A stretch of DNA of 64,000 nt, taken from the IMG/VR virus record IMGVR_UViG_2660238316_000001, positions 1 to 64,000 of that record. The stretch is one strand, 5' to 3'. Each line of letters opens with the position of its first letter. The stretch's first letter is position 1. The translations under genes and the position numbers were made by a program. The notes under the pieces are model-generated. The model saw nothing but the letters and a program-made list of their open reading frames with translations, did no database searches and had not been told where the DNA came from. The stretch is from an uncultured virus (IMG/VR IMGVR_UViG_2660238316_000001) (taxonomy: Duplodnaviria; Heunggongvirae; Uroviricota; Caudoviricetes). Of this stretch, positions 20,490 to 39,455 are shown piece by piece.

Positions 20490-20563
20490 GATATGGCTCA
20501 AAGGTAACTATTAGTTATATTTTATCATTTTACTTATTGGGTTATTGCCCCTATAAAATCACA

Positions 20564-22069: not shown

Positions 22070-22160
22070 TCCATCAAATAAAAAGATACAAGAATTGTAT
22101 CAAAATATATCTAATAGTTCATCGGTTACTATTAAGCTAAACCCTCATAGCGTTGATTGT

Positions 22161-22364
22161 TTATGCTTTTCCCCTTTCCACCACCGCCATAATCTCATCC
22201 AACACCTCATGCATCAGTTGCACATCATCAATGGTGTAAGTGCCATCCAGCATATCTGACCATCTTGCCAGTGGCGGGCAATGTTGCCCGGCACCGGCAC
22301 AAGGTCGCCATAAAAACCAGTCTACGCGGGAGGGTGCTGCGGATTGTTTTCCGCGCTTTTTCCC
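22161..22364 (-). CDS. Tail chaperone -1 frameshift extension (gpT-like)
   Basis: Open in the -1 frame after slippery G GGA AAA at 22358-22364. Confidence 0.65.
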   Translation of the reverse strand, partial: GKKRGKQSAAPSRVDWFLWRPCAGAGQHCPPLARWSDMLDGTYTIDDVQLMHEVLDEIMAVVERGKA

Positions 22365-23124: not shown

Positions 23125-23594
23125 TTACTCCACGGTGGCATTGATTTCAGCGATATGACCGGCACGGCCTAAAATCACTAACAAGGTGGTTAATGGGAAA
23201 ACACGTTTTTTGCGTTGGTCTGAGGTCAGCGCAAGGACATCTTCCGGGCGGGAGCGGATAACAAAACCAAAATCAGCCACTTTAGTCACGCCATCGTCAG
23301 GATCAACATAAGAGCCGGTACCCAGCACACCGTTATTGAAAAAGCGTTTGCAGGTAGTGGCAACCGTAGACAGTAACCCGTCATAGTCGCGTGGTGTCAG
23401 TGCGCGCTTGGTGCCAACATTAGCAATGTAGTTGTAGCCATCCACCTGAATATGGTTTTTCAACACATCCAGATTGACCACATCATCAATAAATTCGCCA
23501 TAGGACGACATCGATTTACTGTTGATCACCCGGCTGTTATCAATTTGCCCGGCCAGTTCAATTTTAGTGAAAAACACCGCGTTCTTGGCTTTTA
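23125..23594 (-). pseudogene. Tail sheath (DUF3383-like), 5'-truncated
   Basis: Only the C-terminal ~155 aa (GEFIDDVVNLDVLKN...AGHIAEINATVE) remain. Confidence 0.8.
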
Positions 23595-24191
23595 GATAAT
23601 AATCCAGTGACACCGACACGCTCAGCTAAACCGGTGGTGAAACGTGAGCGCCTGGAACTGGATCAGTATCTCGCTATTCGTGAGGTCGCTGACACATTAC
23701 CGGCGTGGTTCGGGTTATCAATGGATCTGGCGCTAGTCACTGGCCAACGCCGTGAGGATTTATCTCTGATGCGCTTTGACCAGATTGTTGATGGCAGATT
23801 ACAGATAGACCAAGGCAAAACCGGAGCCATGATCTCCCTGCCCTTAGATCTTGAACTTAAAGCCGTTGGCCTACGCCTTAGCACCGTGATTGAACAATGT
23901 AAATTAGCCAGTAAAACAGACTTTATGATAAGTGCTGGCATCAGAAAAAATAGCCCTGACGGATCACTACATCCAGATAGCCTGACAAAGAAATTCGTAA
24001 CGGCGAGAAAAGGAACAGATTTTCGTTTTGATGAGAGTCCGCCAACTTTTCACGAGATCAGAAGTCTCGCTGGGCGATTGTATGAAAAGGAAAAAGGTAA
24101 AGAATTTGCGATGAAACTGCTGGGGCATAAATCGGAGAAGATGACGAACAAGTATCTTGATACGAGAGGGAAAGAATACGTGATGCTATAA
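23595..24191 (+). pseudogene. Lambda-type tyrosine integrase, N-terminally truncated
   Basis: Catalytic R (TGQRRED), K (QGKTG), HxxR (HEIR), H (LGH), Y (KYLD) present; N-terminal domains missing. Confidence 0.9.
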
Positions 24192-24293
24192 AAGACCGAA
24201 TATCAGATTTCGATAAGATTTCGATAAATTTCGATAAACCACAAAATTCACCTTTAAAATCAACAGCTTAAAAAGAGACCGAATACGATTCCT
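24048..24293 (+). repeat. 246-bp direct repeat copy 2
   Basis: Near-identical to 9814-10059. Confidence 0.95.
24277..24293 (+). other. att core, junction of elements 2 and 3
   Basis: AAAAAGAGACCGAATACGATTCCT; arm-type repeats at 24207-24237 and 24411-24440. Confidence 0.8.
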
Positions 24294-24457
24294 AAAGGTG
24301 AGAATTCTTAATTTTATCTATATAAAACAATAAGATAACCAGAGTCATGACCTTTAGCCTACGTTTAACACCGTCTTTAAAAGATCAACATGATCATATA
24401 GTTATCAGCTATTTCGAAAATTCTCGGGAAAATTTCGAGCGTTAAAATGAGGAAAAC

Positions 24458-24670
24458 ATGACTTCAACACTGTTTATAGTCTGCCTAATACTGACAGCCG
24501 TAATGATCACCATCCACCCTGCTCTCTCTATTCCTTTTGTTATCGCTACTTATCTGCTGGCAGGTAAAGGCAATATGCACATGGACAGTAACACGAGTAT
24601 CATATTAGGCATCATCGGATTTATTCTGTTATTGGTTCTGTTCGTTATTGTTAATGATGCTCTGAAATAA
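24458..24670 (+). CDS. Small multi-TM membrane protein
   Basis: 70 aa, GAGG RBS, almost entirely hydrophobic. Confidence 0.6.
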   Translation: MTSTLFIVCLILTAVMITIHPALSIPFVIATYLLAGKGNMHMDSNTSIILGIIGFILLLVLFVIVNDALK

Positions 24671-24713
24671 CTATTGATATTGTAACGTGGATTAATCGCT
24701 ACTCAATTTGACA

Positions 24714-24737
24714 GTCAGCTAAGAGCGAGAAGCGGAC
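24714..24737 (+). repeat. Palindromic cassette site B1
   Basis: GTCAGCTAAGAGCGAGAAGCGGAC. Confidence 0.85.
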
Positions 24738-24780
24738 GGCAGAACATTCCTTGAACTTAGCAATGTATCCTAATGACAAA

Positions 24781-26211
24781 TCAGCCTCGTAGCGATAATT
24801 TTTTATTTAAAGCTCGGTCGAGAGTTTTGAGCTCCTTATCTAAAATGGGAGTTATCTCAATATTGAATTCGATCAATTGTCCATAATCAAGACGCAATAA
24901 TTTACGGATAAAATTTGACCGATAGGCCCAAAGTGACTTACGACTGGTACAATACGACATCATATGAACTTGGACATTTGACTCAAAACTGTCCCAACAA
25001 GTCAACAAACTTACGATATTGCTAATATATTTTATTAATTCAGCTTGGATCTTTCTCTGATCAAGACGGTTTTTCACTTCTGTGAAAAAATTCTCAAGAT
25101 TATCTTGATAAACATCTTCGACTAATGATTCCAAAACAGGGTACAAGGGCATTGTTTTATTATTGCCCCCTCTACGAATAAGGCGCAACTTTATGTTTTT
25201 ATTATCATTACCTTTGGCATAACGAAGATAACGTACGACTTCTGTAATGCGATCCTGATATTCAGGACGTAAATTCAGTTCAAACTGTCGGAGCCAATCC
25301 TCTTTTGCACCTTTATCAAAAGCATGTATAGCTGCAAAGTATTGTGCTATTTTTCGTTCTTTCTGGCCTGCCCTAGGAGCGGTCGCATGTCGGAACTGCG
25401 CCTCATGCCAATTTAAAAAATTAACAGCTATTGAGGTCAATTCTTCACTTTCTCGTATGTAATACGTACTTGCGTTAATAAAAGTATGTAACCCCGCATT
25501 TTTACTAATATGCTGATAAAAAGAATAGGTGATACTTTCGTCCTCTGAAACATGGATAGTTTCACCGATTTTTTTCAGGCACCCATCGATCGCTGCATCC
25601 AGATATGCAAATGTCTCTTCCAATCCAGTCAGATAAGTGACCGCAGGATCATCAAAATCATAATTTACACGCGGTTTCATGCGCAGAATTTCGACAATTT
25701 TCTTTTCTAAAGCATGCACAATTTTCTGCGAATTCCATAAAAAATTGCCATTATCTTGTAAAAACTCTTCAAATATTGTAGCTGCAATAGCACCATCATG
25801 GGATTTATCCTCAAAAAAATCATAGTACCCCAAAGAATAGTGTTCGGGGCTGTCTTTAAGAACGTACTGCTTTCGCCATTTTGGCGCTAGGAGATTAAGA
25901 GGTGTTACCAGCAACATTAGATGTCTGAAACTATCAGTACTACTATGACGAGGATACTGTTTTTTCGCTATCTCAGTTCCAATCAAATCCCAAACTGACT
26001 TACGAGCATTTTTAAGGTCTGAAACCTCCGTGTATGATTTTCCACTCGCAAAACGTGATTTCAAAGAAAGCAAATCAAGATTAATATGGTCAATAAGTTC
26101 TTCTTCGTTGGTCCAATGCTTGGACCTGAATAATTGATTATTTGGATTATGATTTTTTTGCTCTGCCATTTTTATACCGCTCTTTAATGCCGTTAATTCG
26201 ATTATATTCAA
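24781..26211 (-). CDS. Hypothetical protein (~460-476 aa), cassette 1
   Basis: Long AT-rich ORF, no motif recognised. Confidence 0.75.
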   Translation of the reverse strand: MNIIELTALKSGIKMAEQKNHNPNNQLFRSKHWTNEEELIDHINLDLLSLKSRFASGKSYTEVSDLKNARKSVWDLIGTEIAKKQYPRHSSTDSFRHLMLLVTPLNLLAPKWRKQYVLKDSPEHYSLGYYDFFEDKSHDGAIAATIFEEFLQDNGNFLWNSQKIVHALEKKIVEILRMKPRVNYDFDDPAVTYLTGLEETFAYLDAAIDGCLKKIGETIHVSEDESITYSFYQHISKNAGLHTFINASTYYIRESEELTSIAVNFLNWHEAQFRHATAPRAGQKERKIAQYFAAIHAFDKGAKEDWLRQFELNLRPEYQDRITEVVRYLRYAKGNDNKNIKLRLIRRGGNNKTMPLYPVLESLVEDVYQDNLENFFTEVKNRLDQRKIQAELIKYISNIVSLLTCWDSFESNVQVHMMSYCTSRKSLWAYRSNFIRKLLRLDYGQLIEFNIEITPILDKELKTLDRALNKKLSLRG

Positions 26212-26266
26212 GAAGGGAAGGTGCGGCTCGTGGCCGCACTGATGATATTCGTCGCCCTCTTATACT

Positions 26267-26677
26267 TTAGTAACCATTAAAGTCTTCATCACTACCTTCT
26301 TGGGCTTTAATGATATCTTCAGCACAAACATCCTGAAGTGTACCTTCTGCATTGTTCAGGTCGTCAATTACTTCCTGAAACTTTTCACCGAGTTCAGCAG
26401 CCGATACTTTACCTTCTGCTATGAACTCAAGTGTAGAAATGGCTGCCTCTACATTTGGTAACTCATCCTTAACGCGGATAACTTCCTCACCAAATGGGAT
26501 ATCATCTAAAGGAATCCAACGGTTGCTGTCGATGTCAATACCGCGCTCCTCTTCGAGCTTACTCTCTACTGCATCGTTGATGCTTCCAGCTACATCAATG
26601 AACTCCTCAGACATCTCTTTTAATGCCTGAGCGCGGTCTAGAGCTTCTGCAATTTCATGCTGTGTTATGTCACTCAT
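26267..26677 (-). CDS. Highly acidic helical protein, cassette 1
   Basis: 136 aa, GGAG RBS, very D/E-rich. Confidence 0.8.
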   Translation of the reverse strand: MSDITQHEIAEALDRAQALKEMSEEFIDVAGSINDAVESKLEEERGIDIDSNRWIPLDDIPFGEEVIRVKDELPNVEAAISTLEFIAEGKVSAAELGEKFQEVIDDLNNAEGTLQDVCAEDIIKAQEGSDEDFNGY

Positions 26678-26907
26678 AACGATCTCCAGTACTAGTTTTA
26701 AGCTAATTGTTGATGTAATGTTTGCGAAAATTACCCCAACGACATGTGATCAAATAACTACCGCCTGATGAATCCTGACTAGCCAGTTATCAGCTAATGT
26801 CATAACCACGGACGTGATTGCTGTCGTTAAGGTCATCATACTTAAAATGGTCATTGAGTCAGGGATGCTAACTTCTATTTATTGCTTTTTTACCATGTGC
26901 AGCACTG

Positions 26908-27039
26908 TGATCTGCATGATATGGATTGGTATCATGCAGAGTTAGCAACGTCTGCTTCTGGCACAGAGCTGACGTCCGCTATGAGCGAAGAGCGGACGTT
27001 GCTAACAGCGTTCTGTTTGAATCAACGGGGAGCAGGTCA
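26908..27039. repeat. Composite junction: 45-bp IS3-like end, site A1 (26950-26973), site B2 (26974-26997), inverted 45-bp IS3-like end
   Basis: TGATCTGC...GTTAGCAACGTC and, reverse complemented, TGACCTGCTCCCCGTTGATT...GTTAGCAACGTC. Confidence 0.85.
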
Positions 27040-27227
27040 GCGCCTACAGCTACGCAGCTTAACCCGAAACATTATTCATTGTGGTTTTTGCAGCTTCCGC
27101 TGATACCACATATAGTGGATACGGGAGTCGGACGGGCCAACACCAGTGCAGAACGAGCCGGTTTCACTGCTGCGCTTTAATGATGCCAACAACCACGCTA
27201 AATTTAACGCTTTATGGGGGTACACAT

Positions 27228-27788
27228 ATGGACCAAGAAAGTTTGAAGAGACTCACTGAAGAGTATCATTCGAAATATGAAAAACATCTAACTCCTGAAC
27301 TCGACATGACGTCATTGGTATTAAAGGCCCACCTTTTCTTGGAAGAGATTTTGTACGAAATTGTCTTGCTTCACTGTAAGGCTCCTAAAGCTTTAGAGGG
27401 TATTCAATTCTCATTTCATCACAAATTGAAATTAGCTGAAGCGCTTTACGGAGTTCATATGTATAAGATAGAGTTCCCTAGGGGTATCTGGCCCGTACTT
27501 GATGCGCTAAACAAACTCAGAAATGAGTTGGCACATAGAATAGATAGTCCAAAGCTTGAAGATAAGATTGTTAATTTCTTAAGAGCTTCAGAAGAAAACA
27601 TGATGAAAGAAAAACCATCACGGCATTTTAATGAAATATTATGCGACCCTAAGCTTTTAACGGAAAGAATGCTCAATGTATTATTGTACGTGCTTGGATG
27701 GCTTGGTTACATGCATGGTATAATATACTTAAATCCTCCCGAAAAGTTTTTAGCCCCTCTATTTCCAGCAGTTAATAATAAAAGTTAG
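27228..27788 (+). CDS. Helical protein with Rx4H motif (HEPN/MtlR-like), cassette 2
   Basis: LVLKAHLFLEEIL...LNKLRNELAH; ATG 27228 with GGGGG RBS. Confidence 0.7.
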   Translation: MDQESLKRLTEEYHSKYEKHLTPELDMTSLVLKAHLFLEEILYEIVLLHCKAPKALEGIQFSFHHKLKLAEALYGVHMYKIEFPRGIWPVLDALNKLRNELAHRIDSPKLEDKIVNFLRASEENMMKEKPSRHFNEILCDPKLLTERMLNVLLYVLGWLGYMHGIIYLNPPEKFLAPLFPAVNNKS

Positions 27789-27799
27789 TTTTTGCTACA

Positions 27800-27865
27800 G
27801 TCCGCTTTTAGTACGAAGCAAACAAGCTAATTGGGCTGAATCTCCGCTATGAGCGAGGAACGGAA
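27800..27865 (+). repeat. Cassette sites A2 (27800-27823) and B3 (27842-27865)
   Basis: GTCCGCTTTTAGTACGAAGCAAAC and CTCCGCTATGAGCGAGGAACGGAA. Confidence 0.8.
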
Positions 27866-27964
27866 ATAGTTGCTCTGTAGTAGCCCAAGTTTAAACAGTA
27901 AACTTCATCGGTAAGGCATAGGTATAAATAAATACCGGCCTTTGTATTGCCCGACAAAAATAGA

Positions 27965-29542
27965 CTATAAGATTTTTCTCTCTATGGTGTTTGTAATGAT
28001 CAATACGTCATCAGGAATATTTCGCTTCCCCTCTATACGTATTGTGAATACAAAAAGAATAATCGCTGATTTCACAATTTTCATAAGTTGTAACAGATGC
28101 TTCTCAAATTTTTCTTTCTCAATAAATTTCACTTCATCAAAAAAATCATAAGAATTATATAAATCTGTTAACATACCTTTCTCGTGAATAACTAATAACT
28201 TATGCTCTAAATCATTCCTCCAATCTCTATAAAAAGCAAGCTCACCATTTTTATCGTTCAAATCCATTGCAATACTAAACAAACCGAACAATCCTTTATT
28301 ATTTATTTTGTTTATTTTATCCTTTCTTTTTTCATCACGAACCTGCCAGAAGTTATGAAAGTATATATTCCCTCTATCTGGTTTTAAATCAAATAATTTA
28401 CATAGAGCAACTGCTATTTTATCTAAGACACCAAAGCACGATCTAAATGCTATCCTTAACTTCTCAACATTTTCATATAATATCTCACCGTTATACAACT
28501 CAGAATAACACGTCTCAGAATCCTCATAAAAGAACTCACTACCAACCTTATATTCGAAGAACATTTTTCTTGCTAAAGAGTACTCAGCTTTAAGCCTGTT
28601 TAACACCATCTCCATTGGCACAATAAAATCCCCAAAAACGCCTTTCTCGGTGGTCGCAATAGTTATATTATCTTTAGATGATGCATAACAATTACAATAT
28701 AGAGAATGATCAGACAACATTATATTATTATCTATACAAAACCTCTGATAGTGTGATAAAGCATCATACTCCTCCCGCGTGAGCCTTTCATCTGTAATTA
28801 TATCCTCAACGGCATCTATACATGACTCACTCAAGATATCTTCGTTGTACTTTATTTTTCTTTGATAAGTAGCAATCCATGAAGGAATACATTTCCCTGA
28901 TTTTATTGCACATTCATAACCTCGAATAACTTCCCTAATCATTGTATATGTATATGTGGTAGATAACTCATTAAGCAACTCTAATGCTTCAGATCTGTTG
29001 ACCCATGCTTGGGGAATTGAGTCATCAATAGATATGGCTTGTTCATAATAATCCATTGATTCAGATATACGATATTGTCTTTTTAATGCATTAGCTAGGT
29101 TTACCATTAACTCAGGATGAGTCCCCCCATCTTCTAGGGAGAATTTATACGATTTCCAGTAATTATTTTTTACTTCATTCAGTTTAATGAAACTATCAAT
29201 ATCTGCATCGCCATGAGGATTAAAATCAAGGACTGCGCCCATGCCATTTGCCACGTTATAGTAATATGATGATTTTGTCATTATGGTCAGAATAGCATCT
29301 TTGTTATTTATAAATAGACTCAAACCTTCTTCTGCTATGCTTTTTATGTTACTAAAGCTTCCAATATCAATAAGATTTCCAGCCAAATTAGATAAAATAA
29401 TTATTCTATTTGCATTGATAGTATTTATATCATCTATGCCTTTCAGTAGTTCCTTTACATTTTTATAGGCAGAATCAAATGTTCCTGTATTTATAAGATC
29501 ATTTATATATCCCATTTTTGAAACTACATAGTTGATATCCAT
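27965..29542 (-). CDS. TPR + LA2681-type HEPN domain protein, cassette 3
   Basis: TPR-like VNLANALK..YRISESMDYYEQAI; AFRSCFGVLDKIA; WRNDLEHK (Rx4H). Confidence 0.85.
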   Translation of the reverse strand: MDINYVVSKMGYINDLINTGTFDSAYKNVKELLKGIDDINTINANRIIILSNLAGNLIDIGSFSNIKSIAEEGLSLFINNKDAILTIMTKSSYYYNVANGMGAVLDFNPHGDADIDSFIKLNEVKNNYWKSYKFSLEDGGTHPELMVNLANALKRQYRISESMDYYEQAISIDDSIPQAWVNRSEALELLNELSTTYTYTMIREVIRGYECAIKSGKCIPSWIATYQRKIKYNEDILSESCIDAVEDIITDERLTREEYDALSHYQRFCIDNNIMLSDHSLYCNCYASSKDNITIATTEKGVFGDFIVPMEMVLNRLKAEYSLARKMFFEYKVGSEFFYEDSETCYSELYNGEILYENVEKLRIAFRSCFGVLDKIAVALCKLFDLKPDRGNIYFHNFWQVRDEKRKDKINKINNKGLFGLFSIAMDLNDKNGELAFYRDWRNDLEHKLLVIHEKGMLTDLYNSYDFFDEVKFIEKEKFEKHLLQLMKIVKSAIILFVFTIRIEGKRNIPDDVLIITNTIERKIL

Positions 29543-29660
29543 TCAATCCTCTAAAAACTAAGCCAACGATGCCTATCATTATATGAGTGTGGCCAATAGA
29601 AAGCATGCCACCTCTGACAAAAAACTTTCCATGATGAAAAAAATCACACTACAGCACACC

Positions 29661-29763
29661 TGACCTGCTACCTTCAAATTAATGCAGATCGAACTTAGAG
29701 ACTTCCGCTCTTGGCACAAATTAGACTAACGATGGCCATTAGTCTACTTGAGCGAAAGCGGAC
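29661..29763 (+). repeat. 45-bp IS3-like end, site A3 (29703-29726), site B4 (29742-29763)
   Basis: TGACCTGCT...; TTCCGCTCTTGGCACAAATTAGAC; GTCTACTTGAGCGAAAGCGGAC. Confidence 0.8.
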
Positions 29764-29774
29764 ATCCTAGCCTA

Positions 29775-30323
29775 TTAGCTTGAGTGATGGGCATTCCACT
29801 CATCACGAGTAATCTCCCACAACTCTGAGTCCAGAAGGCCGCTGACAAACTCTTTCTTTTCCGTTCTTATTAGGCGCATACCGCTACTGACTGAAATGCG
29901 CTGAGAACGTATATTTTCAGTTGCTTTTGGAGCACGCAATACCGCCCTGTTCAAAGTGTTAAACCAGTAATCTGTCGCGGCAATACTGGCTTCGCGCATT
30001 AATCCGTACCCCTGACATTCAGGAACCAGCCAGAAACCACGATTATTATCTTCCTCATCATCCAGGCAGATAACACCTATTAAATTGTCAGGATTATCCC
30101 GGTGCCGTATGGTCCAAACCCAGGCGACTCCTTTTGCCATAGCTGGCAGCACGACGTTATTAACATAGTGTGCTGCGCCATCGTCAGGATAGGGCCAGGG
30201 AACCGATGACACCATATAACGGACAATTTCCCAGCGTGGATAGCGCTCTTGAATTTGTGATGCATCTTCGGCAACTATTGGCTTTAACAGCAAACGCTTT
30301 GTTTCTAGCATGGGTATTTGCAT
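29775..30323 (-). CDS. GNAT N-acetyltransferase (RimJ/RimL type), cassette 4
   Basis: LETKRLLLKP, GFWLVPECQGYGLMREA, N..SQRIS...GM motifs. Confidence 0.9.
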   Translation of the reverse strand: MQIPMLETKRLLLKPIVAEDASQIQERYPRWEIVRYMVSSVPWPYPDDGAAHYVNNVVLPAMAKGVAWVWTIRHRDNPDNLIGVICLDDEEDNNRGFWLVPECQGYGLMREASIAATDYWFNTLNRAVLRAPKATENIRSQRISVSSGMRLIRTEKKEFVSGLLDSELWEITRDEWNAHHSS

Positions 30324-30490
30324 GGATCTTCTCCTTACTGGTTAACATATCCATTACCATTTTTTACTGGTTCAATATTTACTGTGATTTATTTGGATGT
30401 ACAGAAGATATTCAGGTAATCGGACGGCAGACCAGCTGGGAAGTTGGCTTGATACTTATTGAATATAAATGTAACGGACATTTATAAACT

Positions 30491-30515
30491 GTCTGCTTCT
30501 TGGCACAGAGCAGAC
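30491..30515 (+). repeat. Palindromic cassette site A4
   Basis: GTCTGCTTCTTGGCACAGAGCAGAC. Confidence 0.85.
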
Positions 30516-30642
30516 TGCCTGAACTAATTACACCCACACGAGGTTACTACAGCGCTGGCAAGCCAAACCATCTATAACCATAACAAAATCACTTTACCCA
30601 AAAGTTAATAAATCAGGGAGTCCTTCCAAACTCCCTTTCAAT

Positions 30643-33600
30643 TCACTTATTAAAGTACGGATTCACCCGCTCCACCGCCTGCTGTACCAGTTTGTTTCTG
30701 GTCGCCATTAGCCGATCAATCTTTTCTCTTTTCTGATCCGCCGTGAGTATCCGGTCGCGCCTCATCATTTCAATCTGGGCATTCAGTGCCTTCACTTGTT
30801 TCTGAGTCGCTGTTAACCCCTGACGCTGCGATAATTTCCCTCTATTGTCCTCTATCAATTCATTAGCATCATCGCCACGCCCCTGCTTACGGAAGCTGTT
30901 AATAGTGCTATTAATCTGATTGGCTTCAGTCATCATGCGGTAAAAATCTTCTGTGAACTGGGTAGACTTAGCCGGATCTGAACCTCTGAAGAACGATTTA
31001 ATCACCGGCATTTCATCCAGGCGCATGGCCGGGGTTTCGCCGTAGTCTTTCAGGTTACGCATGAAAAGATTCGTAGCGCCCATCACATAGCCGCCCAGGC
31101 TGCCGGTATACCCCATAACAATATGATCCAGCATCTTAGGTGACATATTGGTAGCCTGCCCAACTTCACGCATTAGCAGGCTGGTCTGATCATTATAACG
31201 AGCACCCGCAATCAAATTGCTGTCGGCCATATTCTCAATCGGACCACCTTTGAAGAAATCATAGTTAACATAAGCCTCAGCAATCGGCATGGCGACTTGT
31301 GGGATAGGGTTGAATGCCATCGTTTCCATAAAGTTATGCGCCACCAGCTTGCCAAATTTTGCCTCGGTATCTTTACCGCCCAGCGCACGAACAAATCGCT
31401 CTGGTAAAGTGCCAAATATCGCACCAAACTCGAACGGTTTTGGAAAGCGAATATGCTGATCACCAATCCATACATGCCAATAGGTGTCTTTATCCCAGTC
31501 CTGTAGCTCTTCATAACGCTTATCGTCCCAATTTAGCGCCATCAGTGCCAGAGAGGCCGCCGTAATCATGCCGCCGCGCTTCAGCACTTCACGCGGGTTC
31601 TCTTTGATACCTCGGCCTAATTTACTCAGCCCCTGCATGCGGGCGTTGAAGAACGGCAGCATATCACTCAGGTTAATCATGATATTGCTGGCCCCCATCA
31701 TACTGAAATCCATTAAGTCGCGAGATTCAAAAGCTGCCTGAGCCTTACTTTTCCCCGATTTAATGGCGGCCTCATAAGTGGCCAGTCGGTTAGCATTCTC
31801 CGCCGCTTCGCTGAGATTTTTATATTTATGCAAACCCTGTTCAATCTTGCCCATCACCTCTTTGCTGTTACGAACAATAGAGGATTCAAATTCTTGTATC
31901 TGACTATCGTTGTAACCTTTACGCCGTAGAACACTACGAATGGTTTTAGCAGTCGATGCCGGATCATAAACATTCGAATAACCACCACCAAAAGTCGCGC
32001 CAGCAAACATCATATCCACCAGACTATCATCGGTGCGTAGGGCTTTTTTAAATCCGGCCCATGAGGCTATAACTGGCTTAAAACCATCTTTATTGATGGC
32101 CCATGAGTGGATTGAGTCACGTAAGAAGTTGCGGATAATAAAATCAGGCATTGATGTGGTGCTGACGGTCAGCACTTTTTTAGCCTGGCGGGCCGCTTTC
32201 ATAAAGGTGGAATTACTGCGCTCAAGGTCAATCATGGTAAAGGCGCGATACAGTTCAGGATCATTAACCTGTACCAGTTTTTCCTGCCCATCAACAAACA
32301 CCTTCACCACATCTTTGCCGATACGCTCAAAGTCCATCTTGTTCGGTGATTCAATCACCTCCAGCACACCGGTATCCGCAAGATTGACCACTGAGCGACG
32401 CATAGCTTCATTTTTCATTGAAGCATCGACCGATTTCGCCACGTAATTAAACAGGTTTTCGATAGGATCCTTAATGGTCAAATCACTGCCTTTTAACTTG
32501 CGCACAGTACTGCTCTGGTTAGCAATGCCTTTGCTGGTCCACGGCCCCTTCACCTCACCATTTTCTGCTTCACGATAATATGGCAAGTACCAGGCATCCT
32601 CCCACTGTGCGCGGCTTTCTGGATCAATCAATCCCATATCCTGTTGCAGATCCAGAATCGATTTAATAAAGGCATCATACTTTTTCTTCTGACCTTCGAA
32701 TAAAGACTCATTACCCCGGTTGAGGGTTTTCATATAAGCAATTTCGTCGGCATTAAAGTTGTTCTCTTTGCCCTCTTTCATCAGCCGTTCAGAGCGATGG
32801 CCGGCGATCCATTTAAAGAAGTTTTCCCGATGGTTTCCCAGTCCGTCGAGAATACCCATAAGAGCGTCCTCTTTACCGGTACCGGATTGTCGCTCTACTA
32901 TCCCTTCGGCTTTGTTATAGCGCGGCAAGCCATGCTCTAAAGTGGCGGCAGTAACAGAGCCTGCCCCGGCAGCCATACGCGCGCCAATGTAGGCAGAACT
33001 TCGTGCATCATTGATACCAGCGGCATCCTCGGCATACTTCAGCGGAGCCATGCCATCAAAGGTTTTAGTATTGAGTTTACGGCCAGTTTCTTTTAGCCAG
33101 ACTTTCAGTTCCGTTTTATCTTTGCTGGTCACTGTACCGTAGAAAGTCTTGGCCTTATCAAACCACCCCTGCTCAACGTTAAAGCCCATTTTTCGGTTGG
33201 TTTCAGCATCCATTGATGGGTTGGCAGTACGAGAGTAAAGCGCGTCACTATTGCGAATATCCTGCTTGGAGAGTATATTTTTACTTGAGCCGCTAAAGGT
33301 GTTCGCCCCGGGCAATTGGAGCCCGGTTGCATGAAGCCATTTAGCGGCTTTTTCTTTGTCTAAATACAGCAAGTCGTTGTCCAACTGCTTTTGTAGCGCA
33401 GCACGGTTATCTTTCCCGTACACGCTCGCAATCTTATTCACCTCTGCAAATCCAGCACCTTTACCATTCAGATGAATAGCGGCAATCACTGGATTCCCAT
33501 TAGCATCATGAGCTTCCACCAGTGAGACTAAAGCATCTTTCTCTGTTGCAGAACGCATGACAGCCACAGGGTCAGAAATTAGCTCAGGCAACCGCTTCAT

Positions 33601-36600
33601 ATCCTCTATTCGTACTGCGTGATCACGAATGGATGGGTCAGTAGCTTTATGGACCACGGACGCAGGCATGGTAAGCTCAATATTCCTTGCCCCAAGCGCC
33701 TGATAAACGGCTGGCGTATCGCCTAAACGAATCTGGTGGCGCGGGGCATTGTTCATTGCGGCAATATTTTCCACCTCCGCAGCAAACTGTTTTGCATCAT
33801 AGCTATCGGGTTTGAATGGATCTTTACGACCTTTGGAATACAGTGCGTCTGACCGAGAGAAAGTATTATCGAACTCCCGCGTTCCCGGCTGTTCGCCATC
33901 ATACATAGCAGTCTTTTTGAAGCGCCCGGCGACCGTGCGCAGAATATTACGTATTTCCGTTGGGGAAATGTCATTCGCATTCATGATGCCCGTTTTCTTC
34001 AATCCATTGATCAGCACAGAAACAAAACGGTCCCACATCGCTCCAAGGCCGGTGAGTTCTGAACGCTCAGCCATGTGAGCCAAAAACTCATTAGCCTGCA
34101 TTTCGAGAGACTCATTACGGTATGATTTATCGACCTCCCGCCAGACATCCTGAATTTCTTTATTTTTGCTGTCGCGCGTTTGATGTAACACTCGCATGAT
34201 ACGATCATATTCCACATCGCCAATGACGGAAGCTAGCCCATGGTGCGCCAAGACCTCATGACGCAATTTAGCCCTAAGTTCGCGGTCAGAAGTAATGTTA
34301 TCCGCTACCACAATCACCCGACTGAGTTCCGGTTGATAAATGGCATGGACAATGCCGAATTCTTTCGGGATCCCGCTCGGCATCATGGCAGCCGCTTCAG
34401 CTTGGGTTTGCACTACCTTAACTTTAATTTTGGCTGCACCATTCAAATTGCGCACCCAGACATCAGCGATAACTTGAGCCCGCCCTTGCCGTATTCCCTG
34501 AGTGGGTTTGTTACCAGCAGCAGTGTGACCAGTATCTGAAATCACATTGCCTTTGCCAATGTCAGTACCCTTACGCGAATAGAAAGTGATACCTTTATCG
34601 GTTGGTTTGGTTTTGATGGTTTGGAATAGGTGATCAAATGCCTGACGCACGCCGCCGTTTAATTCAGCTTCAGTTGGATAGGCATAAGTTTCAGGGTTTG
34701 CATGTTCGTCAGCTTTACGCAGGTTCACCAGATAGTCGTTAGTGATGCCTTTACTTTGTGCTTTATCAAGCAAATAACGCTCAAAGGCTCGCGCTGACAT
34801 TTCGAGTTTAGTCGTCCAGTAGGCTTTGCTTCGGCCACCGTCTAGCAATGCAGCACGCTCCATCATTCCACTATTGGTGACTTTATCGACGGCACTTTTA
34901 AAGGCGTCATGCACTTCTTGCCTGACTGGATGGATGACTTCTTGCCTTTTGCCGCCACTAAATTCATAGCGAGGACGTTTACGATCGGTAATAAATTCGG
35001 ATGAACGTTTACCGGACGCCTCGCCATGTACATCATAGGTGCCAAAATAGTTATCCAGTGCATGGAACCACTCATGCGCTAGCGAGCCTGCGCCATTACC
35101 TTTGGTGAGATTGATAACCACCTGCCCTGGCTCATAATGGGCTTTGGTTCCGCCCTTACCCCGTGCGCCAAATGCCAGCCCCAATTCACCATTGAGAGAG
35201 ATGGCTTTGGTCGGCACACTCAGTAATTCGGCCATATCGATCAGGGAGTCATAGGCGTCGTTTAATTCAGATTGACGGCGTGGCCCCTCAACATAGTTAC
35301 CAAACTGCACCCCGCGGAAACCGAAGGCATCACTAAATTGTTCAGGCGTCACATTACCCTTACGACGCTCAATACCAGTACGTGGCTCATTAGTCGCTTT
35401 GCGTTGTTCCTCGCGAGAGACTTTGCGTAATTTATCCAGTTTGGCTTCAATTTCAGCGCGATTCTCTGCCAGATAAGCTCGTGCCTCGTTGGGTGTTTTG
35501 AAGCCCGCTTTAAGCGGCAAAACGCCCATAGCCCCTTTGTAGCCAATAAACACGCTTTTATCTGCCCGCCGGGTATAGATCTCTAACTTAGCCTGTTTAG
35601 GGGCTGCTTCCCCTTTATCACTATTGAGCTGAGTCTCGATAAATGCCTTGGCTTTGGGTAATAGTTCCGCCATGGATCCCGCTGAAATATTTGCTATCAC
35701 TCCCCTTGGCGTGACCAGTTGATAAAGTGTTTTACCACCGGGATAGCTCTTGCCGTCAAAATAGGTGTAATGACCGGAGTGAACTGAGTACTTCGATGCT
35801 TCGGACATCTGCTCAGGTTTAAACTGTGAGATTAAATCAACAGTATCGGCGGCAGATCGTAAGGAGGACTTACTGCGAAAAATGGTTTTTATATCGTCAA
35901 CACTCGCATGGCTATTGATAATAGAACTCGCTAAATCACGAACCCCCTTAACCTGTTCAGCCCACTGATTAAGCTTATAAGGGGAGCCCGGTTTGGTCGG
36001 GATAAACGAGCGCAATACTGCAAGCAGCGCAAGTTTGTCTGACTTAACGCCATTCTCATGCATTTTGGTGTAATCAGGGTGCGGGAATAGTTTAGAAAGA
36101 GGCTGTTTCTTAATTTCTTCAATATCATGATCGGCTTTCAGTGACTCTGCCAATTGGCTCCATTTATGCTTCGCGGCCCCCTTAAGTTCCTCACCAAAAT
36201 CATCAATTTTTGCGTCTCTGTTTTTGACTTGACCCACTAGCTCAGGTACGGGCAATCGAACACCGTACCCCTTTCCTACCGGTTCAATCGTGGCACCCGG
36301 CATCTTGCCCCATTTGGAATACTTAGCGACTTTCTCACTGTTGAAGGGTTTGCCGAGATGCAGTCTCAATTCACCGACTTGCTGCTCACCAGACGCCACA
36401 ACGCCCTCATTAGAGGGCGCTGTTTTCGTATTTGCCGTTGTTGGCTCAGGTGGCAATCGCACACCAAAACCATCACCAACCGGTTCAATCACCGCCCCCG
36501 GCATCTTGGCCCATTTCGTGAATCTGGCTACTTTTTCATTGGGGAATGGCTTGCCGTGGTGCAATCTCAACTCGCCTTGTGGAGTTCCTGATTCAATATG

Positions 36601-38883
36601 CCCCTCTTTGGTTGATGCAATACCGCTATCAGTTGATTTTGCAGGTAATCGCACGCCAAAACCGTCGCCTACTGGCTCAATAACAGCACCTGGCATTTTT
36701 GCCCACTTAGTTAATCTGGCCACTTTCTCATTAGGGAATGGCTTGCCGTGGTGCAATCTCAACTCGCCAAGAGTTTCACCTTTTGCATAAGCTTCGGTAC
36801 GTGCATCTATAGGGACACCACCAGCACGCTGACGCTGATCGGTAATCGCTGTTTCAGACTGCGCTCCCATCGCCTCAGTAAAGCGGCGCACATCTTTACG
36901 CTGCCCTCCCTCAAACTGCGGCGCTTTCCCTGACTGAACATCATCAGGATTAACTACAGGTCCATCAGCAAAGATGATGTTTTTATCCGTAATGGCCTGC
37001 GGATCCGTTTGCCCATCGTAGGTATGGGTTTCTCTGACCGCACCTTGCTGCTCTGCCTGCTCCCTCGGCAAATACACTTGCCCACGAGTCTGTTCCCCGG
37101 CTGTGAATTGTGGCGCGGAACCCGCTTGAGGTTCATCACCTTGAATTGGTCCTGGCATTGGGAAACCTTCACCCGGATGAATATTACCGGGAGCTGGCAG
37201 GCGTGGAGTTCGCTGCGCCCGGATCTGATCAGCTTGCTGAAGTATCGATATCTCATCAGGTGTATAACCCTGCTCGCCCGACTCCATTTGTTGCTGAATC
37301 AGATCCTGTGCGGTCGGTTGTGCTTCTGGCTCTGCAAGTGAACGTTGAACATCGCTATCATCAGCAAAGCCTTGTACCCGAGGATCCTGACGTAAGTAAG
37401 CTGGGGTATCGCGGAAATCATCAATTTGAGAGTTGGGTACACCATTTTCACTGACTGAGTTTTGTTGTACTGCCACTTCAGGGGAACTCTGATTTTCTGC
37501 CTGCGGTGTAACTTCCTGCTGTTGGGAGGGATCGATATTTTCAGATACGGGTGAACCGTCAACATTAACGGGGTTTTCTGATGTTGCTTCTGCTGCTGAC
37601 CTGCGGCCACGAATTCCACCGATAGTTCCCGCTGCGCCACCAATGCCAGCCCCTAGCACTGCATTATTAGCACCGGTTTCTACCACCCCTTTCATTGGGT
37701 CTATTTTCTGACCTGCGGTGTCAATTAACTGCTGATTTTGAACATAGCGCTGGGCTGCACCCTGAGTGAACTCAGTTCCACCTTCCGCCGCCGCACCTAA
37801 TGAAGCCCCGGAAATAACACCAGAAGCCGCCCCTTTTTTGGTAAGCAAATTCAATAAGGTATGATCGCCCAATGTAGAAGCTGCAATGTTTATCGCTAGC
37901 ATGCGCGGATCTACCGTCACACTGCTGGCGGCCTGTTCTGCAACCTGATTGCGAGCTAGCGTTAATTTTTGTGTATCTGACAGTGCTGAGTTATTTGGAT
38001 CCGAATCTATGGTTGAAAAGGCTTTTTGAAAAGTAGGGCTTTGCACTAACTGATCAAAGGGCAATGCATTGATCTCATCGCGCATTTCATTACCAGAAGA
38101 ACCTTGTGCAGTACCTGCCATTATTCCGACAAATCCAGATTTTTGAGCCTGAATGCCCGCTTTAATTGCTGTTTCTTTTGCCGTTTCTCTCGCTACAAAT
38201 TCAGGTAACAGATTCTTAAGTTTCTGAAAAGTAAGTTCCTCAATACTTTTAGCGATGACCTTACCACCAAGTTTGGCAAATCCACCCACAGAGAACAGCT
38301 GAGAAAGTGTGGGTACTGCATTCATTACCCATGCATCTTTATCAAAAGCACCAGCACCAAGCTTCAGATTATCTTGAGAATCAGTTTCAATGAAAGGCAT
38401 CTCTGCTGCCTGCTTAGCCCCCTCACTGTAATTAGACTTTATTTTATCAGTGACATCACCAGCTAAATTACTTATGCCAGCTAAGGCACTAACCCCAACT
38501 TTACCGAGTGCTTTAGGTAAATCATTACCAGGATTTTTTCGAATTACATTCAACAACTCAGGATCAACATCCAGTGATATCCTTGGTTTTTCGGTGGCTA
38601 ATCTGTCCAATTTTCTATCAGCACCAACAACCATTTGGGATAATCCGTGAATAATTTCAGAAGGTGCTGTCGCTGCTGCGAAAGCAACATCTTTTAAACC
38701 TACACTAGGGTCATTCTCCTGCGGAGCTTTTGACTGCCGCCCAGCAGCTTCACGCGCAGCCCTGACGGCACCCCAGTCGAAACCAGTATTAGCATTCTCA
38801 CCTGGTTGCTGGATATTGAGTGTTTCACGATTACTGTTATTGGTTTGCTCTTCTGGACGTTGTTGTTGCGGATCGTAAGTCAT
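30643..38883 (-). CDS. Giant polyvalent internal virion protein (2746 aa; LPD1-, MuF-C- and LPD38-like domains)
   Basis: FGFRGVQFGN and LAHEWFHALD, RHEVLAHHGL metallopeptidase-like motifs, KIASVYGK, IRFPKPFEFG; last gene of late operon. Confidence 0.85.
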   Translation of the reverse strand: MTYDPQQQRPEEQTNNSNRETLNIQQPGENANTGFDWGAVRAAREAAGRQSKAPQENDPSVGLKDVAFAAATAPSEIIHGLSQMVVGADRKLDRLATEKPRISLDVDPELLNVIRKNPGNDLPKALGKVGVSALAGISNLAGDVTDKIKSNYSEGAKQAAEMPFIETDSQDNLKLGAGAFDKDAWVMNAVPTLSQLFSVGGFAKLGGKVIAKSIEELTFQKLKNLLPEFVARETAKETAIKAGIQAQKSGFVGIMAGTAQGSSGNEMRDEINALPFDQLVQSPTFQKAFSTIDSDPNNSALSDTQKLTLARNQVAEQAASSVTVDPRMLAINIAASTLGDHTLLNLLTKKGAASGVISGASLGAAAEGGTEFTQGAAQRYVQNQQLIDTAGQKIDPMKGVVETGANNAVLGAGIGGAAGTIGGIRGRRSAAEATSENPVNVDGSPVSENIDPSQQQEVTPQAENQSSPEVAVQQNSVSENGVPNSQIDDFRDTPAYLRQDPRVQGFADDSDVQRSLAEPEAQPTAQDLIQQQMESGEQGYTPDEISILQQADQIRAQRTPRLPAPGNIHPGEGFPMPGPIQGDEPQAGSAPQFTAGEQTRGQVYLPREQAEQQGAVRETHTYDGQTDPQAITDKNIIFADGPVVNPDDVQSGKAPQFEGGQRKDVRRFTEAMGAQSETAITDQRQRAGGVPIDARTEAYAKGETLGELRLHHGKPFPNEKVARLTKWAKMPGAVIEPVGDGFGVRLPAKSTDSGIASTKEGHIESGTPQGELRLHHGKPFPNEKVARFTKWAKMPGAVIEPVGDGFGVRLPPEPTTANTKTAPSNEGVVASGEQQVGELRLHLGKPFNSEKVAKYSKWGKMPGATIEPVGKGYGVRLPVPELVGQVKNRDAKIDDFGEELKGAAKHKWSQLAESLKADHDIEEIKKQPLSKLFPHPDYTKMHENGVKSDKLALLAVLRSFIPTKPGSPYKLNQWAEQVKGVRDLASSIINSHASVDDIKTIFRSKSSLRSAADTVDLISQFKPEQMSEASKYSVHSGHYTYFDGKSYPGGKTLYQLVTPRGVIANISAGSMAELLPKAKAFIETQLNSDKGEAAPKQAKLEIYTRRADKSVFIGYKGAMGVLPLKAGFKTPNEARAYLAENRAEIEAKLDKLRKVSREEQRKATNEPRTGIERRKGNVTPEQFSDAFGFRGVQFGNYVEGPRRQSELNDAYDSLIDMAELLSVPTKAISLNGELGLAFGARGKGGTKAHYEPGQVVINLTKGNGAGSLAHEWFHALDNYFGTYDVHGEASGKRSSEFITDRKRPRYEFSGGKRQEVIHPVRQEVHDAFKSAVDKVTNSGMMERAALLDGGRSKAYWTTKLEMSARAFERYLLDKAQSKGITNDYLVNLRKADEHANPETYAYPTEAELNGGVRQAFDHLFQTIKTKPTDKGITFYSRKGTDIGKGNVISDTGHTAAGNKPTQGIRQGRAQVIADVWVRNLNGAAKIKVKVVQTQAEAAAMMPSGIPKEFGIVHAIYQPELSRVIVVADNITSDRELRAKLRHEVLAHHGLASVIGDVEYDRIMRVLHQTRDSKNKEIQDVWREVDKSYRNESLEMQANEFLAHMAERSELTGLGAMWDRFVSVLINGLKKTGIMNANDISPTEIRNILRTVAGRFKKTAMYDGEQPGTREFDNTFSRSDALYSKGRKDPFKPDSYDAKQFAAEVENIAAMNNAPRHQIRLGDTPAVYQALGARNIELTMPASVVHKATDPSIRDHAVRIEDMKRLPELISDPVAVMRSATEKDALVSLVEAHDANGNPVIAAIHLNGKGAGFAEVNKIASVYGKDNRAALQKQLDNDLLYLDKEKAAKWLHATGLQLPGANTFSGSSKNILSKQDIRNSDALYSRTANPSMDAETNRKMGFNVEQGWFDKAKTFYGTVTSKDKTELKVWLKETGRKLNTKTFDGMAPLKYAEDAAGINDARSSAYIGARMAAGAGSVTAATLEHGLPRYNKAEGIVERQSGTGKEDALMGILDGLGNHRENFFKWIAGHRSERLMKEGKENNFNADEIAYMKTLNRGNESLFEGQKKKYDAFIKSILDLQQDMGLIDPESRAQWEDAWYLPYYREAENGEVKGPWTSKGIANQSSTVRKLKGSDLTIKDPIENLFNYVAKSVDASMKNEAMRRSVVNLADTGVLEVIESPNKMDFERIGKDVVKVFVDGQEKLVQVNDPELYRAFTMIDLERSNSTFMKAARQAKKVLTVSTTSMPDFIIRNFLRDSIHSWAINKDGFKPVIASWAGFKKALRTDDSLVDMMFAGATFGGGYSNVYDPASTAKTIRSVLRRKGYNDSQIQEFESSIVRNSKEVMGKIEQGLHKYKNLSEAAENANRLATYEAAIKSGKSKAQAAFESRDLMDFSMMGASNIMINLSDMLPFFNARMQGLSKLGRGIKENPREVLKRGGMITAASLALMALNWDDKRYEELQDWDKDTYWHVWIGDQHIRFPKPFEFGAIFGTLPERFVRALGGKDTEAKFGKLVAHNFMETMAFNPIPQVAMPIAEAYVNYDFFKGGPIENMADSNLIAGARYNDQTSLLMREVGQATNMSPKMLDHIVMGYTGSLGGYVMGATNLFMRNLKDYGETPAMRLDEMPVIKSFFRGSDPAKSTQFTEDFYRMMTEANQINSTINSFRKQGRGDDANELIEDNRGKLSQRQGLTATQKQVKALNAQIEMMRRDRILTADQKREKIDRLMATRNKLVQQAVERVNPYFNK
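36250..36768 (-). repeat. Three intragenic ~42-aa repeats in the giant protein
   Basis: GELRLH(H/L)GKPF..EKVA....W.KMPGA.IEPVG.G.GVRLP x3. Confidence 0.95.
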
Positions 38884-39455
38884 TTGGCGCTCCAAATTTC
38901 AGACGTAAAAAAAGCCTCGTTGTGAGGCTGTTCGATAGTATTAATAAGGTCCGGTTGCGCGAGATCTTTAATCCGTTCATATTCGAGATTAAGTCTGTGT
39001 TTTTCCTTCTTTCGCGCATTCATCAATCGACTACCGATAGTCCCCTTAACCTTCGAAACATTTTCTTTTATGGCAAACAAATGCTCCGCTTCTTCGCCGA
39101 TTGCAAGACGGCGCTTTAGTTGCTCTGTCATCCAGTTGAAAGCATTGATATACGCCTCTTTAATCGCTGTCGCAGGTTTACCGGTAAATCCCATAATTAA
39201 CATCATGCAACCATCACGAGTTATATTAAACATCGGCTGCATATCGCCATTTTTATCAATGAAATCAGTGGGCGCAAAATTGCGCTGGGTAAAATCATCG
39301 GAACATTTCAGGTTTCGAATTGCCCTTAGAACATCTTTGTGACGCTTGCTAAAGCATTGAGCAACCTTAAGTGAGGTGGTTATCACTTTGTTCTCTGACA
39401 TAACCACCATGTCTCGAAAATCAAATTGTGGGATGACTACCATTTGTTTGTTCAT
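38880..39455 (-). CDS. Rha family phage regulatory protein
   Basis: TTSLKVAQCFSKRHKDVLRAIRNL...TRDGCMMLIMGFTGK..IKEAYINAFN. Confidence 0.9.
   Translation of the reverse strand: MNKQMVVIPQFDFRDMVVMSENKVITTSLKVAQCFSKRHKDVLRAIRNLKCSDDFTQRNFAPTDFIDKNGDMQPMFNITRDGCMMLIMGFTGKPATAIKEAYINAFNWMTEQLKRRLAIGEEAEHLFAIKENVSKVKGTIGSRLMNARKKEKHRLNLEYERIKDLAQPDLINTIEQPHNEAFFTSEIWSAK

Follow-up and report, generated by a model that had tools for sequence, protein, structure and literature searches.

What moves accessory genes into and out of a slot framed by short palindromic sites is the question raised by a gene array in a temperate phage, known from the virus record IMG/VR IMGVR_UViG_2660238316_000001. The record is a single contig of 84,588 bp, and the window analysed here is its first 64 kb. 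The array occupies positions 24714-30515 of the window, holds four cassettes with five genes, and lies in a variable hotspot bordered by an integrase remnant on one side and a polyvalent-protein gene on the other. An earlier note on this DNA had claimed eight sites of two forms, A and B, and all eight are present where it placed them. The order is also as described there. Two genes lie between B1 and A1, and one gene each between B2 and A2, B3 and A3, and B4 and A4; A1 directly adjoins B2, A2 is followed by B3 after 18 nt, and A3 by B4 after 15 nt. A single B stands at the left end, a single A at the right end, and an A+B pair at each inner junction. Comparison of related sequences indicates that the cassettes are probably bounded by sites of the tyrosine-recombinase core type and exchanged by a recombinase of ~200 amino acids supplied in trans.

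A and B sites share their inverted arms of 9 bp (GTCCGCTWY) and differ in the asymmetric 6-bp centre between them, which is GAGCGA in B and TGGCAC in A. The A consensus is (GTTAGC)AAY GTCCGCT TC TGGCAC AA AGCGGAC, and the B consensus is AAG GTCCGCT AT GAGCGA AA AGCGGAC RTT(GCTAAC). Both were derived from unique instances (144 A and 199 B), which share a 9-6-9 geometry with inner flanks GTTAGCAAC/GTTGCTAAC. When sites were detected by their arms only, 301 of 356 carried one of the two centres (GAGCGA in 184, TGGCAC in 117), with one hybrid and the rest mostly single-base variants. The earlier note had taken A and B as one site in opposite orientations; this view is not upheld, as the centres form two discrete classes and the sites of each array are all co-oriented. 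Since the centres are discrete, each class is expected to recombine only with its own kind, and A and B are presumably incompatible. Two inverted arms around an asymmetric centre of 6-8 bp make up the core sites of the Cre/lox, Flp/FRT, and Xer/dif type, and the A and B sites have this layout.

Searches of the record itself define where the sites occur. At up to 3 mismatches, the A pattern proposed in the earlier note matches once and its B pattern three times, compared with 0 expected from shuffled sequence, while the remaining four window sites differ from these patterns by further mismatches or by indels of 1-2 bases. A loose stem pattern with up to 2 mismatches finds bona fide sites only at 24714-30515 in the whole 84,588-bp record, in agreement with the remark that the site was not noticed elsewhere in the window.

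The two arms of a site vary independently of each other. Watson-Crick counts equal the independence expectation at all seven stem positions (184 A and 129 B sites), and even at the most variable stem position they come to 97 observed against 93.2 expected and 64 against 62.8. With no compensatory variation between the arms, nothing selects for a hairpin. This pattern fits arms that behave as separate half-sites in duplex DNA, as for a tyrosine recombinase, and does not fit a selected hairpin. It also renders unlikely the HUH-type enzyme that had been offered as one of two kinds of enzyme acting in trans.

The sites are widespread in Enterobacterales. The exact B pattern matched 26 further viral contigs and 91 stretches in bacterial genomes, on chromosomes as well as plasmids, and the host genera include Pantoea, Erwinia, Kluyvera, Enterobacter, Klebsiella, Leclercia, Rahnella, and Citrobacter. 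A position-weight scan, with its threshold set where shuffled sequence gives 0 matches per 2 Mb, identified 537 sites in ~170 loci of phages, plasmids, and chromosomes. The grammar B-cargo-A-short spacer-B is obeyed by 295 of 350 neighbouring site pairs. B-to-A intervals account for 153 of these pairs (median 1085 nt) and A-to-B intervals for 142 (median 17 nt), 121 of the latter being at most 60 nt long. A-A or B-B neighbours make up 43 pairs, in which a degenerate site was probably missed between the two. Neighbouring sites are co-oriented in 338 of the 350 pairs and inverted in only 12.

Cargo has no such fixed direction. Of 148 cargo intervals, 92 have their largest open reading frame (ORF) on the A-to-B strand and 56 on the opposite strand, which implies that the cassettes carry their own expression signals. 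Each of five host genomes holds 6-28 sites, clustered and on plasmids, in place of the genome-wide scatter of REP/BIME repeats that, according to the earlier note, would have spoken against a cassette system. As a separate observation, a 455-bp B..A unit with only a 95-aa membrane-like ORF occurs twice in one Leclercia chromosome (L170 1485-1962 and L171), with 95% identity and in opposite directions. Homology between the two copies begins at the first base of B and extends 87 nt past A.

Breakpoints between related phages fall inside the sites. A total of 52 loci related to the window phage were collected using the end of the polyvalent-protein gene. Among the relatives with a left-flank match, 12 of 24 lose homology at 24726-24738, within B1, and among those with a right-flank match, 7 of 45 begin matching at 30480-30514, at A4. 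Relatives that break at the sites keep the backbone-side arm and the centre and diverge from the cargo-side arm onward. Two relatives (L012 and L026) contain only a half-site, joined to unrelated DNA, and two (L002 and L013) have lost the B site.

The same boundary is seen when one cargo is followed through different contexts. Among 147 cargo units there are 15 same-cargo pairs with at least 85% identity, of which the left context differs in 11, the right context in 8, and both in 8. Outside the site, the members of a pair are no more alike than expected by chance. Their identity is low at the variable positions of the outer arm and becomes high once the centre is reached. The centre and inner arm are co-inherited with the cargo, and the outer arm is not. 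The step in identity between outer and inner arm points to a crossover in the centre, as comparative evidence and not as mapped cleavage. For the eight pairs changed at both borders, either one double exchange or two independent single events would account for the pattern.

The window was also compared with contigs of four further isolates of this organism, taken from four studies, a comparison that reveals other contexts and not rare events. Cassettes 2 and 3 form one block in all four isolates, which starts at 26974 or 26978, stops at 29717 or 29718, and has three different left contexts. The stop is the end of the A3 centre, and those isolates carry other outer arms, of two different sequences. 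The match of cassette 4 ends with the final base of the A4 centre (30506) in one isolate and at 30511 in a second. A related prophage is present in two isolates, and there 3224 or 4890 nt of other sequence take the place of the stretch 24609/24693 to 30651/30560. Cassette 1 (24738-26949) is uncovered by these contigs, which proves nothing. Taken with the co-oriented arrays, the differing contexts and the breakpoints inside sites bear out the modular, stacked B-gene-A units that had been proposed for this locus.

A profile search of the 2403 ORFs of the collected loci identified a 202-aa tyrosine recombinase lying exactly in A-to-B intervals. Its PF00589 catalytic domain spans residues 37-186, and its sequence shows the R, K, HxxR, H, and Y motifs. 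The protein stays below the cut-off of every NCBIfam model, the best being archaeal XerA (55 bits vs 220), and the FimB/FimE-type invertase models score 24.7 and 20.2 bits vs cut-offs of 222 and 221. No integron-integrase model matches it, and a sequence search of the Protein Data Bank returned no relative. The family is large and highly conserved: the best 120 of 8000 relatives are 76-96% identical and nearly all ~200 amino acids long, and their hosts include Pantoea, Erwinia, Proteus, Providencia, Pectobacterium, Sodalis, Idiomarina, and others.

The recombinase gene is physically linked to the sites. All eight of the bacterial homologues examined (at least 85% identity) have a B site upstream and an A site downstream after a terminator-like hairpin, and both sites are oriented opposite to the gene. 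The recombinase-side arm is degenerate, and the arm towards the neighbouring cargo is canonical. In 11 distinct viral contexts (at least 83% identity), both sites are present in five, one site in four, and none adjacent in two; the two site-less contexts are truncated recombinase copies, yet they lie inside arrays. Homologues of ~80% identity (L183 and L208) are flanked by like-armed sites with the centres TTGTCT and GTGTAC, and TTGTCT-centre sites with canonical arms are found elsewhere in such genomes. The gene is also present on 346 plasmid records, including the Escherichia coli plasmid pPGRT46, where it lies within an array.

These features suggest that the small recombinase is likely the enzyme that works the sites. 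The gene is found neither in the window nor in the rest of the 84,588-bp record; the observation that the window holds no candidate enzyme thus stands, and of the recombinase or HUH-type enzyme once envisaged, it is a tyrosine recombinase for which a candidate now exists elsewhere. Co-occurrence of recombinase and sites was dropped as independent evidence, because an overlap in three of three genomes is trivial for a gene that brings its own flanking sites.

Under the proposed mechanism, the inverted 9-bp arms would act as binding half-sites and the asymmetric 6-bp centre would be the place of strand exchange, with the chemistry of a tyrosine recombinase. Pairing would join A to A and B to B. 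Given that the sites of an array are co-oriented, excision, insertion, and cargo swap are all predicted outcomes. Two like sites in one molecule would allow a circle to be cut out, and the reverse reaction would insert such a circle. One B x B and one A x A crossover between two replicons would swap their cargo without fusing them. The gene of the ~200-aa recombinase itself sits in the opposite register, between A and B. The array in this phage would depend on an enzyme from the host or from another element, and its cassettes 2 and 3 now behave as a single unit.

Several points weigh against this reading. The evidence is wholly comparative, with no observed recombination, and the loci were collected by an exact B pattern, which biases all counts towards B and towards well-kept sites. 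The recombinase is absent from most site-bearing genomes examined (four of five in one set), and in a sample of 301 genomes, ~10 have canonical sites and only 3 of these ~10 have a homologue of at least 85% identity. It lacks an N-terminal core-binding domain of the size found in Xer and Cre, with model matches confined to the catalytic part, and its linkage to the sites could mean that it is a mere passenger. Only 7 of 45 relatives break at A4, and many relatives, among them the more distant L014-L018, swap hotspot cargo without any site. Because the site-less relatives vary too and breaks at A4 are few, other mechanisms must also act at the hotspot. Finally, conserved stretches of 24-33 bp could also be patches for homologous exchange.

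This last point is the basis of the alternative that survives best, which is nevertheless unlikely. It holds that the sites are conserved linker or boundary sequences and that swaps occur by homologous recombination (host RecA or phage Rad52/Red-type) over the 24-33 bp of identity. Homology-driven exchange also predicts breaks at short conserved sequences, and it accommodates the site-less relatives, which vary at the hotspot as well. However, it leaves unexplained a 9-6-9 dyad with independently varying arms, two discrete centres in strict alternation and one orientation, and the half-sites that are joined to unrelated DNA. It likewise offers no account of why identity steps at the centre and not anywhere in the 24 bp, or why a recombinase gene is embedded among the sites.

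A second alternative, which is judged somewhat less probable still, accepts true recombination sites and assigns them to a host enzyme, XerC/XerD or another chromosomal tyrosine recombinase, with the small recombinase as a passenger or regulator. The absence of the small recombinase from most site-bearing genomes is readily understood in this way. The 6-bp centre is as in Xer sites, and the nearest named models of the small recombinase are Xer, though far under their cut-offs. Set against this are the position of the recombinase gene, precisely between A and B in all eight bacterial and in 5 to 9 of 11 viral contexts, and the variant recombinases that accompany variant centres. The site arms, moreover, bear what we take to be no likeness to dif.

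It is highly improbable that a transposase or a hairpin-acting HUH enzyme moves the cassettes as transposon-like or REP/BIME-like units whose termini are imperfect 33-bp inverted repeats. When flanks are included, the B end and the reverse-complemented A end do agree at ~29 of 33 positions, and A+B pairs resemble the paired REPs of BIMEs. The arms, however, show no compensatory change, copies number 6-28 per genome in clusters and not hundreds, and solitary units showed no target duplication. The 43 annotated protein clusters that most often neighbour the sites include no HUH or RAYT gene. The outer arm remains with its context, which places the break inside the repeat and not at its outer end. 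Equally improbable is that the palindromes are operators or insulating terminators (sites of dimeric proteins or RNA hairpins) for which the border position is secondary: a dyad with independent half-sites is typical of operators too, but the stem has no T-run after it, cargo is found in both directions with respect to the sites (92 vs 56), Rfam gives no match, and breakpoints within sites go unexplained.

Four narrower candidates were rejected. A sigma-54 promoter, suggested by TGGCAC, is unfit by inspection in its spacing to the GC element, and an intrinsic terminator is excluded by the absent T-run. An invertible segment driven by the adjoining integrase was discarded because that gene is a truncated lambda-type integrase that is full length in relatives. 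A composite of A, spacer, and B acting as an integron attC does not accord with an array that ends in a lone B and a lone A, or with a spacer that is not inherited with the cargo.

Placed among known systems, the A/B cassettes resemble integrons and dif modules in their outcome. Like integrons, they have arrays of small unrelated cassettes with one or two genes and recombination sites at their borders, a tyrosine recombinase as the (here likely) engine, arrays without a nearby enzyme gene, and defence genes among the cargo. The integron has one attC per cassette, whereas two sites of two classes are present here. An attC is conserved in its fold, whereas these sites are conserved in sequence and lack arm covariation. 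The end boxes of attC, RYYYAAC/GTTRRRY, are not matched by the flanks GTTAGCAAC/GTTGCTAAC, which confirms the non-attC architecture claimed in the earlier note. Integron cassettes are co-oriented and served by one promoter, unlike cargo that lies on either strand. An integron carries an IntI-type integrase beside the array and beside attI, whereas the window has only a lambda-type integrase fragment and the gene of the ~200-aa candidate lies between two sites.

The dif (pdif) modules of Acinetobacter plasmids are attributed to XerC/XerD. They are similar in that accessory modules have short inverted-arm sites with a 6-bp centre on both sides, occur in many contexts, and rely on an enzyme in trans. 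They differ in having one site type in alternating orientation with a single shared site, in contrast to two classes in one orientation with two sites per junction, and a dedicated small recombinase is linked to the sites only in the present system. PeSL cassettes of T4-type phages and the 'morons' of lambdoid phages likewise have short conserved elements on both sides of accessory genes in phage hotspots. In their case, the elements are transcription signals considered to act by homology, whereas the A and B sites are built like recombinase sites and keep no constant direction relative to the genes. REP/BIME repeats with RAYT occur in hundreds of chromosomal copies, compared with 6-28 here that are clustered and on plasmids. 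FimB/FimE invertases flip a segment between inverted repeats, and inverted site relations are rare here. The system is thus no integron, dif-module array, REP/BIME family, or FimB-type switch.

Laboratory recombinase-mediated cassette exchange uses heterospecific lox or FRT sites. The likeness lies in identical arms with incompatible centres, such that a segment can be swapped but its own two ends do not recombine with each other, with the reservation that A/B incompatibility is predicted here from the centre classes. To our knowledge, no natural system of this heterospecific lox/FRT-like design has been described.

A related locus is already present in a classical phage. In P2 (AF063097), fun(Z) is flanked by an A site at 15335-15358, in minus orientation, and by a degenerate B site at 17432-17455, in cassette order. 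On the evidence of these sites, the P2 lysogenic-conversion gene fun(Z) is a cassette of the same system. Judging by its title, a 2004 work by Nilsson, Karlsson and Haggard-Ljungquist on the P2 fun(Z) locus reportedly notes repeats and infers site-specific recombination. No formal description of the sites or of the small recombinase was found in literature searched by word or by 15-letter site strings, a search with supplements outside it. The accessible portion of the P2/P4 hotspot paper (NAR 2026, PMC13586616) makes no mention of palindromes, inverted repeats, or hairpins, and the literature citing Nilsson 2004 and Odegrip 2006 gives, in the parts available, no detail. The claim that the system is undescribed must be qualified, as the P2 fun(Z) locus has the same sites.

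If the mechanism is true, it would explain the fast movement of anti-phage and accessory genes among the hotspots of unrelated temperate phages, plasmids, and chromosomes in enteric bacteria, which has so far been mostly attributed to homologous or illegitimate recombination. It would constitute a third gene-cassette system next to integrons and dif modules, with two incompatible sites per cassette, a design otherwise known only from engineered lox/FRT pairs. There is about an even chance that the broader picture is correct: a natural form of recombinase-mediated cassette exchange in which a 200-aa enzyme, close to a catalytic domain only, and two heterospecific 24-bp sites make defence and other accessory genes exchangeable between corresponding slots of the phages, plasmids, and chromosomes of Enterobacterales, with the replicons remaining separate. 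Such a system would be distinct from integrons and Xer/dif, its centre variants may form orthogonal networks, and loci like P2 fun(Z) would be its cassettes. Cargo of unknown function can also be delimited in a simple way by its site pair, which makes the window orphans and the HEPN protein, for instance, candidate defence genes. For genome engineering, a recombinase of 200 amino acids that uses 24-bp sites with several natural centre variants could be a compact tool.

The window array itself has aged. Only B1, A1, and B2 (three of eight) are near-consensus sites with canonical spacing, and the remaining five are degenerate. A1 and B2, together with their 9-bp flanks GTTAGCAAC/GTTGCTAAC, make up a 66-bp imperfect palindrome at 26941-27006. 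Because this phage is without the small recombinase gene, the array is a passive substrate, and it is best read as a passive, ageing, partly decayed copy. Sites, cargo genes, and bordering genes are listed in the table.

Features of the cassette array and its borders (window positions; PWM, score in the position-weight matrix scan; aa, amino acids)
Feature	Position	Strand	Details
Lambda-type integrase, C-terminal catalytic fragment	23607..24191	+	194 aa; context gene left of the array
B1 site	24714..24737	+	GTCAGCTAA GAGCGA GAAGCGGAC; PWM 34.6; left anchor, outer (left) arm GTCAGCTAA is phage backbone
Cassette 1 gene a	24781..26211	-	orphan protein; 476-aa ORF from TTG
Cassette 1 gene b	26267..26677	-	136-aa protein of unknown family; same strand as gene a
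A1 site	26950..26973	+	GTCTGCTTC TGGCAC AGAGCTGAC; PWM 38.6; right end of cassette 1
B2 site	26974..26997	+	full consensus; PWM 46.6; left end of cassette 2, no spacer to A1
Cassette 2 gene	27228..27788	+	186 aa; RNELAH (Rx4H) motif; PHROG 5483, unknown function, E 3.8e-9
A2 site	27800..27823	+	centre TAGTAC, decayed outer arm GAAGCAAAC; PWM 16.4
B3 site	27842..27865	+	3 mismatches; centre intact, changes in both arms; PWM 34.4
Cassette 3 gene	27965..29542	-	525 aa; TPR + LA2681-type HEPN; Pfam PF18733 (HEPN_LA2681) E 1.9e-40, weak TPR; RNDLEH at residue 442
A3 site	29703..29726	+	centre and inner arm intact; outer arm AAATTAGAC decayed in this lineage; PWM 26.5
B4 site	29742..29763	+	22 nt, 8-6-8 spacing; one base lost either side of centre
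Cassette 4 gene	29775..30323	-	GNAT acetyltransferase, 182 aa; Pfam PF13302 E 3.9e-23
A4 site	30491..30515	+	25 nt, 10-6-9 spacing, one extra T; right anchor, outer arm is backbone
Polyvalent protein gene	30643..38895	-	2750 aa (LPD38, LPD5, MuF_C, LPD1); conserved right border of the hotspot

The cargo genes are AT-rich, as had been claimed, with a G+C content of 0.32-0.42 compared with 0.44-0.52 in the flanks. Their orientation is less mixed than was stated, with four of the five genes on the minus strand and one on the plus strand. Four of the five cargo proteins are without a function after PADLOC, Pfam, NCBIfam, and PHROG searches, and none of the five matches PADLOC. The proteins of cassette 1 have no Pfam, NCBIfam, PADLOC, or PHROG match. 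Gene a has only 10 homologues, all annotated 'hypothetical' and 462-467 amino acids long, and this length makes the ATG at 26169 (462 amino acids) its likely start. The cassette 2 protein has no Pfam or PADLOC match and is possibly a small HEPN-like protein. The cassette 3 protein is a candidate RNase-type defence or abortive-infection effector. Both carry the HEPN-like Rx4H motif that the earlier note saw in two cargo genes, but a Pfam HEPN domain is found only in the cassette 3 protein. The GNAT gene of cassette 4 lies in other contexts in other isolates, and in a comparison of the array with plasmids, the sole match was this gene, with 85% DNA identity to a gene in a Rahnella plasmid.

Defence genes are one part of a broader cargo. 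In relatives of the window phage, the hotspot contains Shedu (L004), ShosTA with a caspase-like protein (L009), and a PDC-S45 candidate (L001). Of the 53 cargo proteins from viral contigs, 15 match PADLOC at 1e-5, one of the 15 being an ArsR regulator on the Csa3 model. The commonest cargo of bacterial loci consists of LysR regulators, dehydrogenases, arsenic and metal resistance, transporters, and acetyltransferases. Taken as a whole, the cargo does not consist mainly of defence genes, and that of bacterial loci is ordinary accessory genes. One 5-kb viral cassette (L053/L076 5001-9954) contains thymidylate-synthase-like and alpha-glutamyl/putrescinyl-thymine pyrophosphorylase-type genes, which belong to DNA hypermodification, together with a PD-Lambda-2_B-like M78 peptidase gene.

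The region left of the array has a history of its own. The integrase gene at 23607-24191 is full length (359-371 amino acids) in L002 and L012, and the fragment is part of the phage's own integration module, not the cassette enzyme. A truncated tail-sheath-like ORF at 23125-23619 on the minus strand (DUF3383, profile positions 333-427 of 493) abuts the truncated integrase on the plus strand. This joint is common to L001, L006, L026, and L035 and looks like a backbone deletion joint. A 501-aa protein encoded at 20564-22069 on the minus strand matches the PADLOC model PD-Lambda-1 (E 2.3e-169) and the Pfam families DUF4041 and MUG113. Its gene lies in a second indel among the tail genes, with 20494-22170 lacking a counterpart in L001, L006, L026, and L035. 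The array and the tail region have no megablast match in the phage collection, and Rfam gives no credible match within 24000-31000. An inverted repeat with 77% identity over 26 nt (27823-27848 / 29757-29782) relates the 19 nt preceding B3 to the 19 nt following B4, which may be chance.

Sites with the same arms and other centres (TTGTCT, GTGTAC, and GTTCGA) are present in L183 and L208 and in the genomes G180, G300, G040, G087, G109, and G012. Some of these variant-centre sites adjoin recombinases ~80% identical to the main type, and the variant centres may represent further, orthogonal site classes. Upstream of the small recombinase, a perfect inverted repeat (ACTCAAATCTCC ... GGAGATTTGAGT) is found in L156 (7529-7575), L180, L181, L107, and L128; it spans the Shine-Dalgarno sequence and reaches the recombinase start codon. 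The plasmid pPGRT46 (L210, NZ_KM023153 45628-58233) is an IncFIB conjugative plasmid whose array carries betT, a gene for a DUF2254 protein, and genes for two hypothetical proteins, and a copy of IS26 lies just past the last site of that array.

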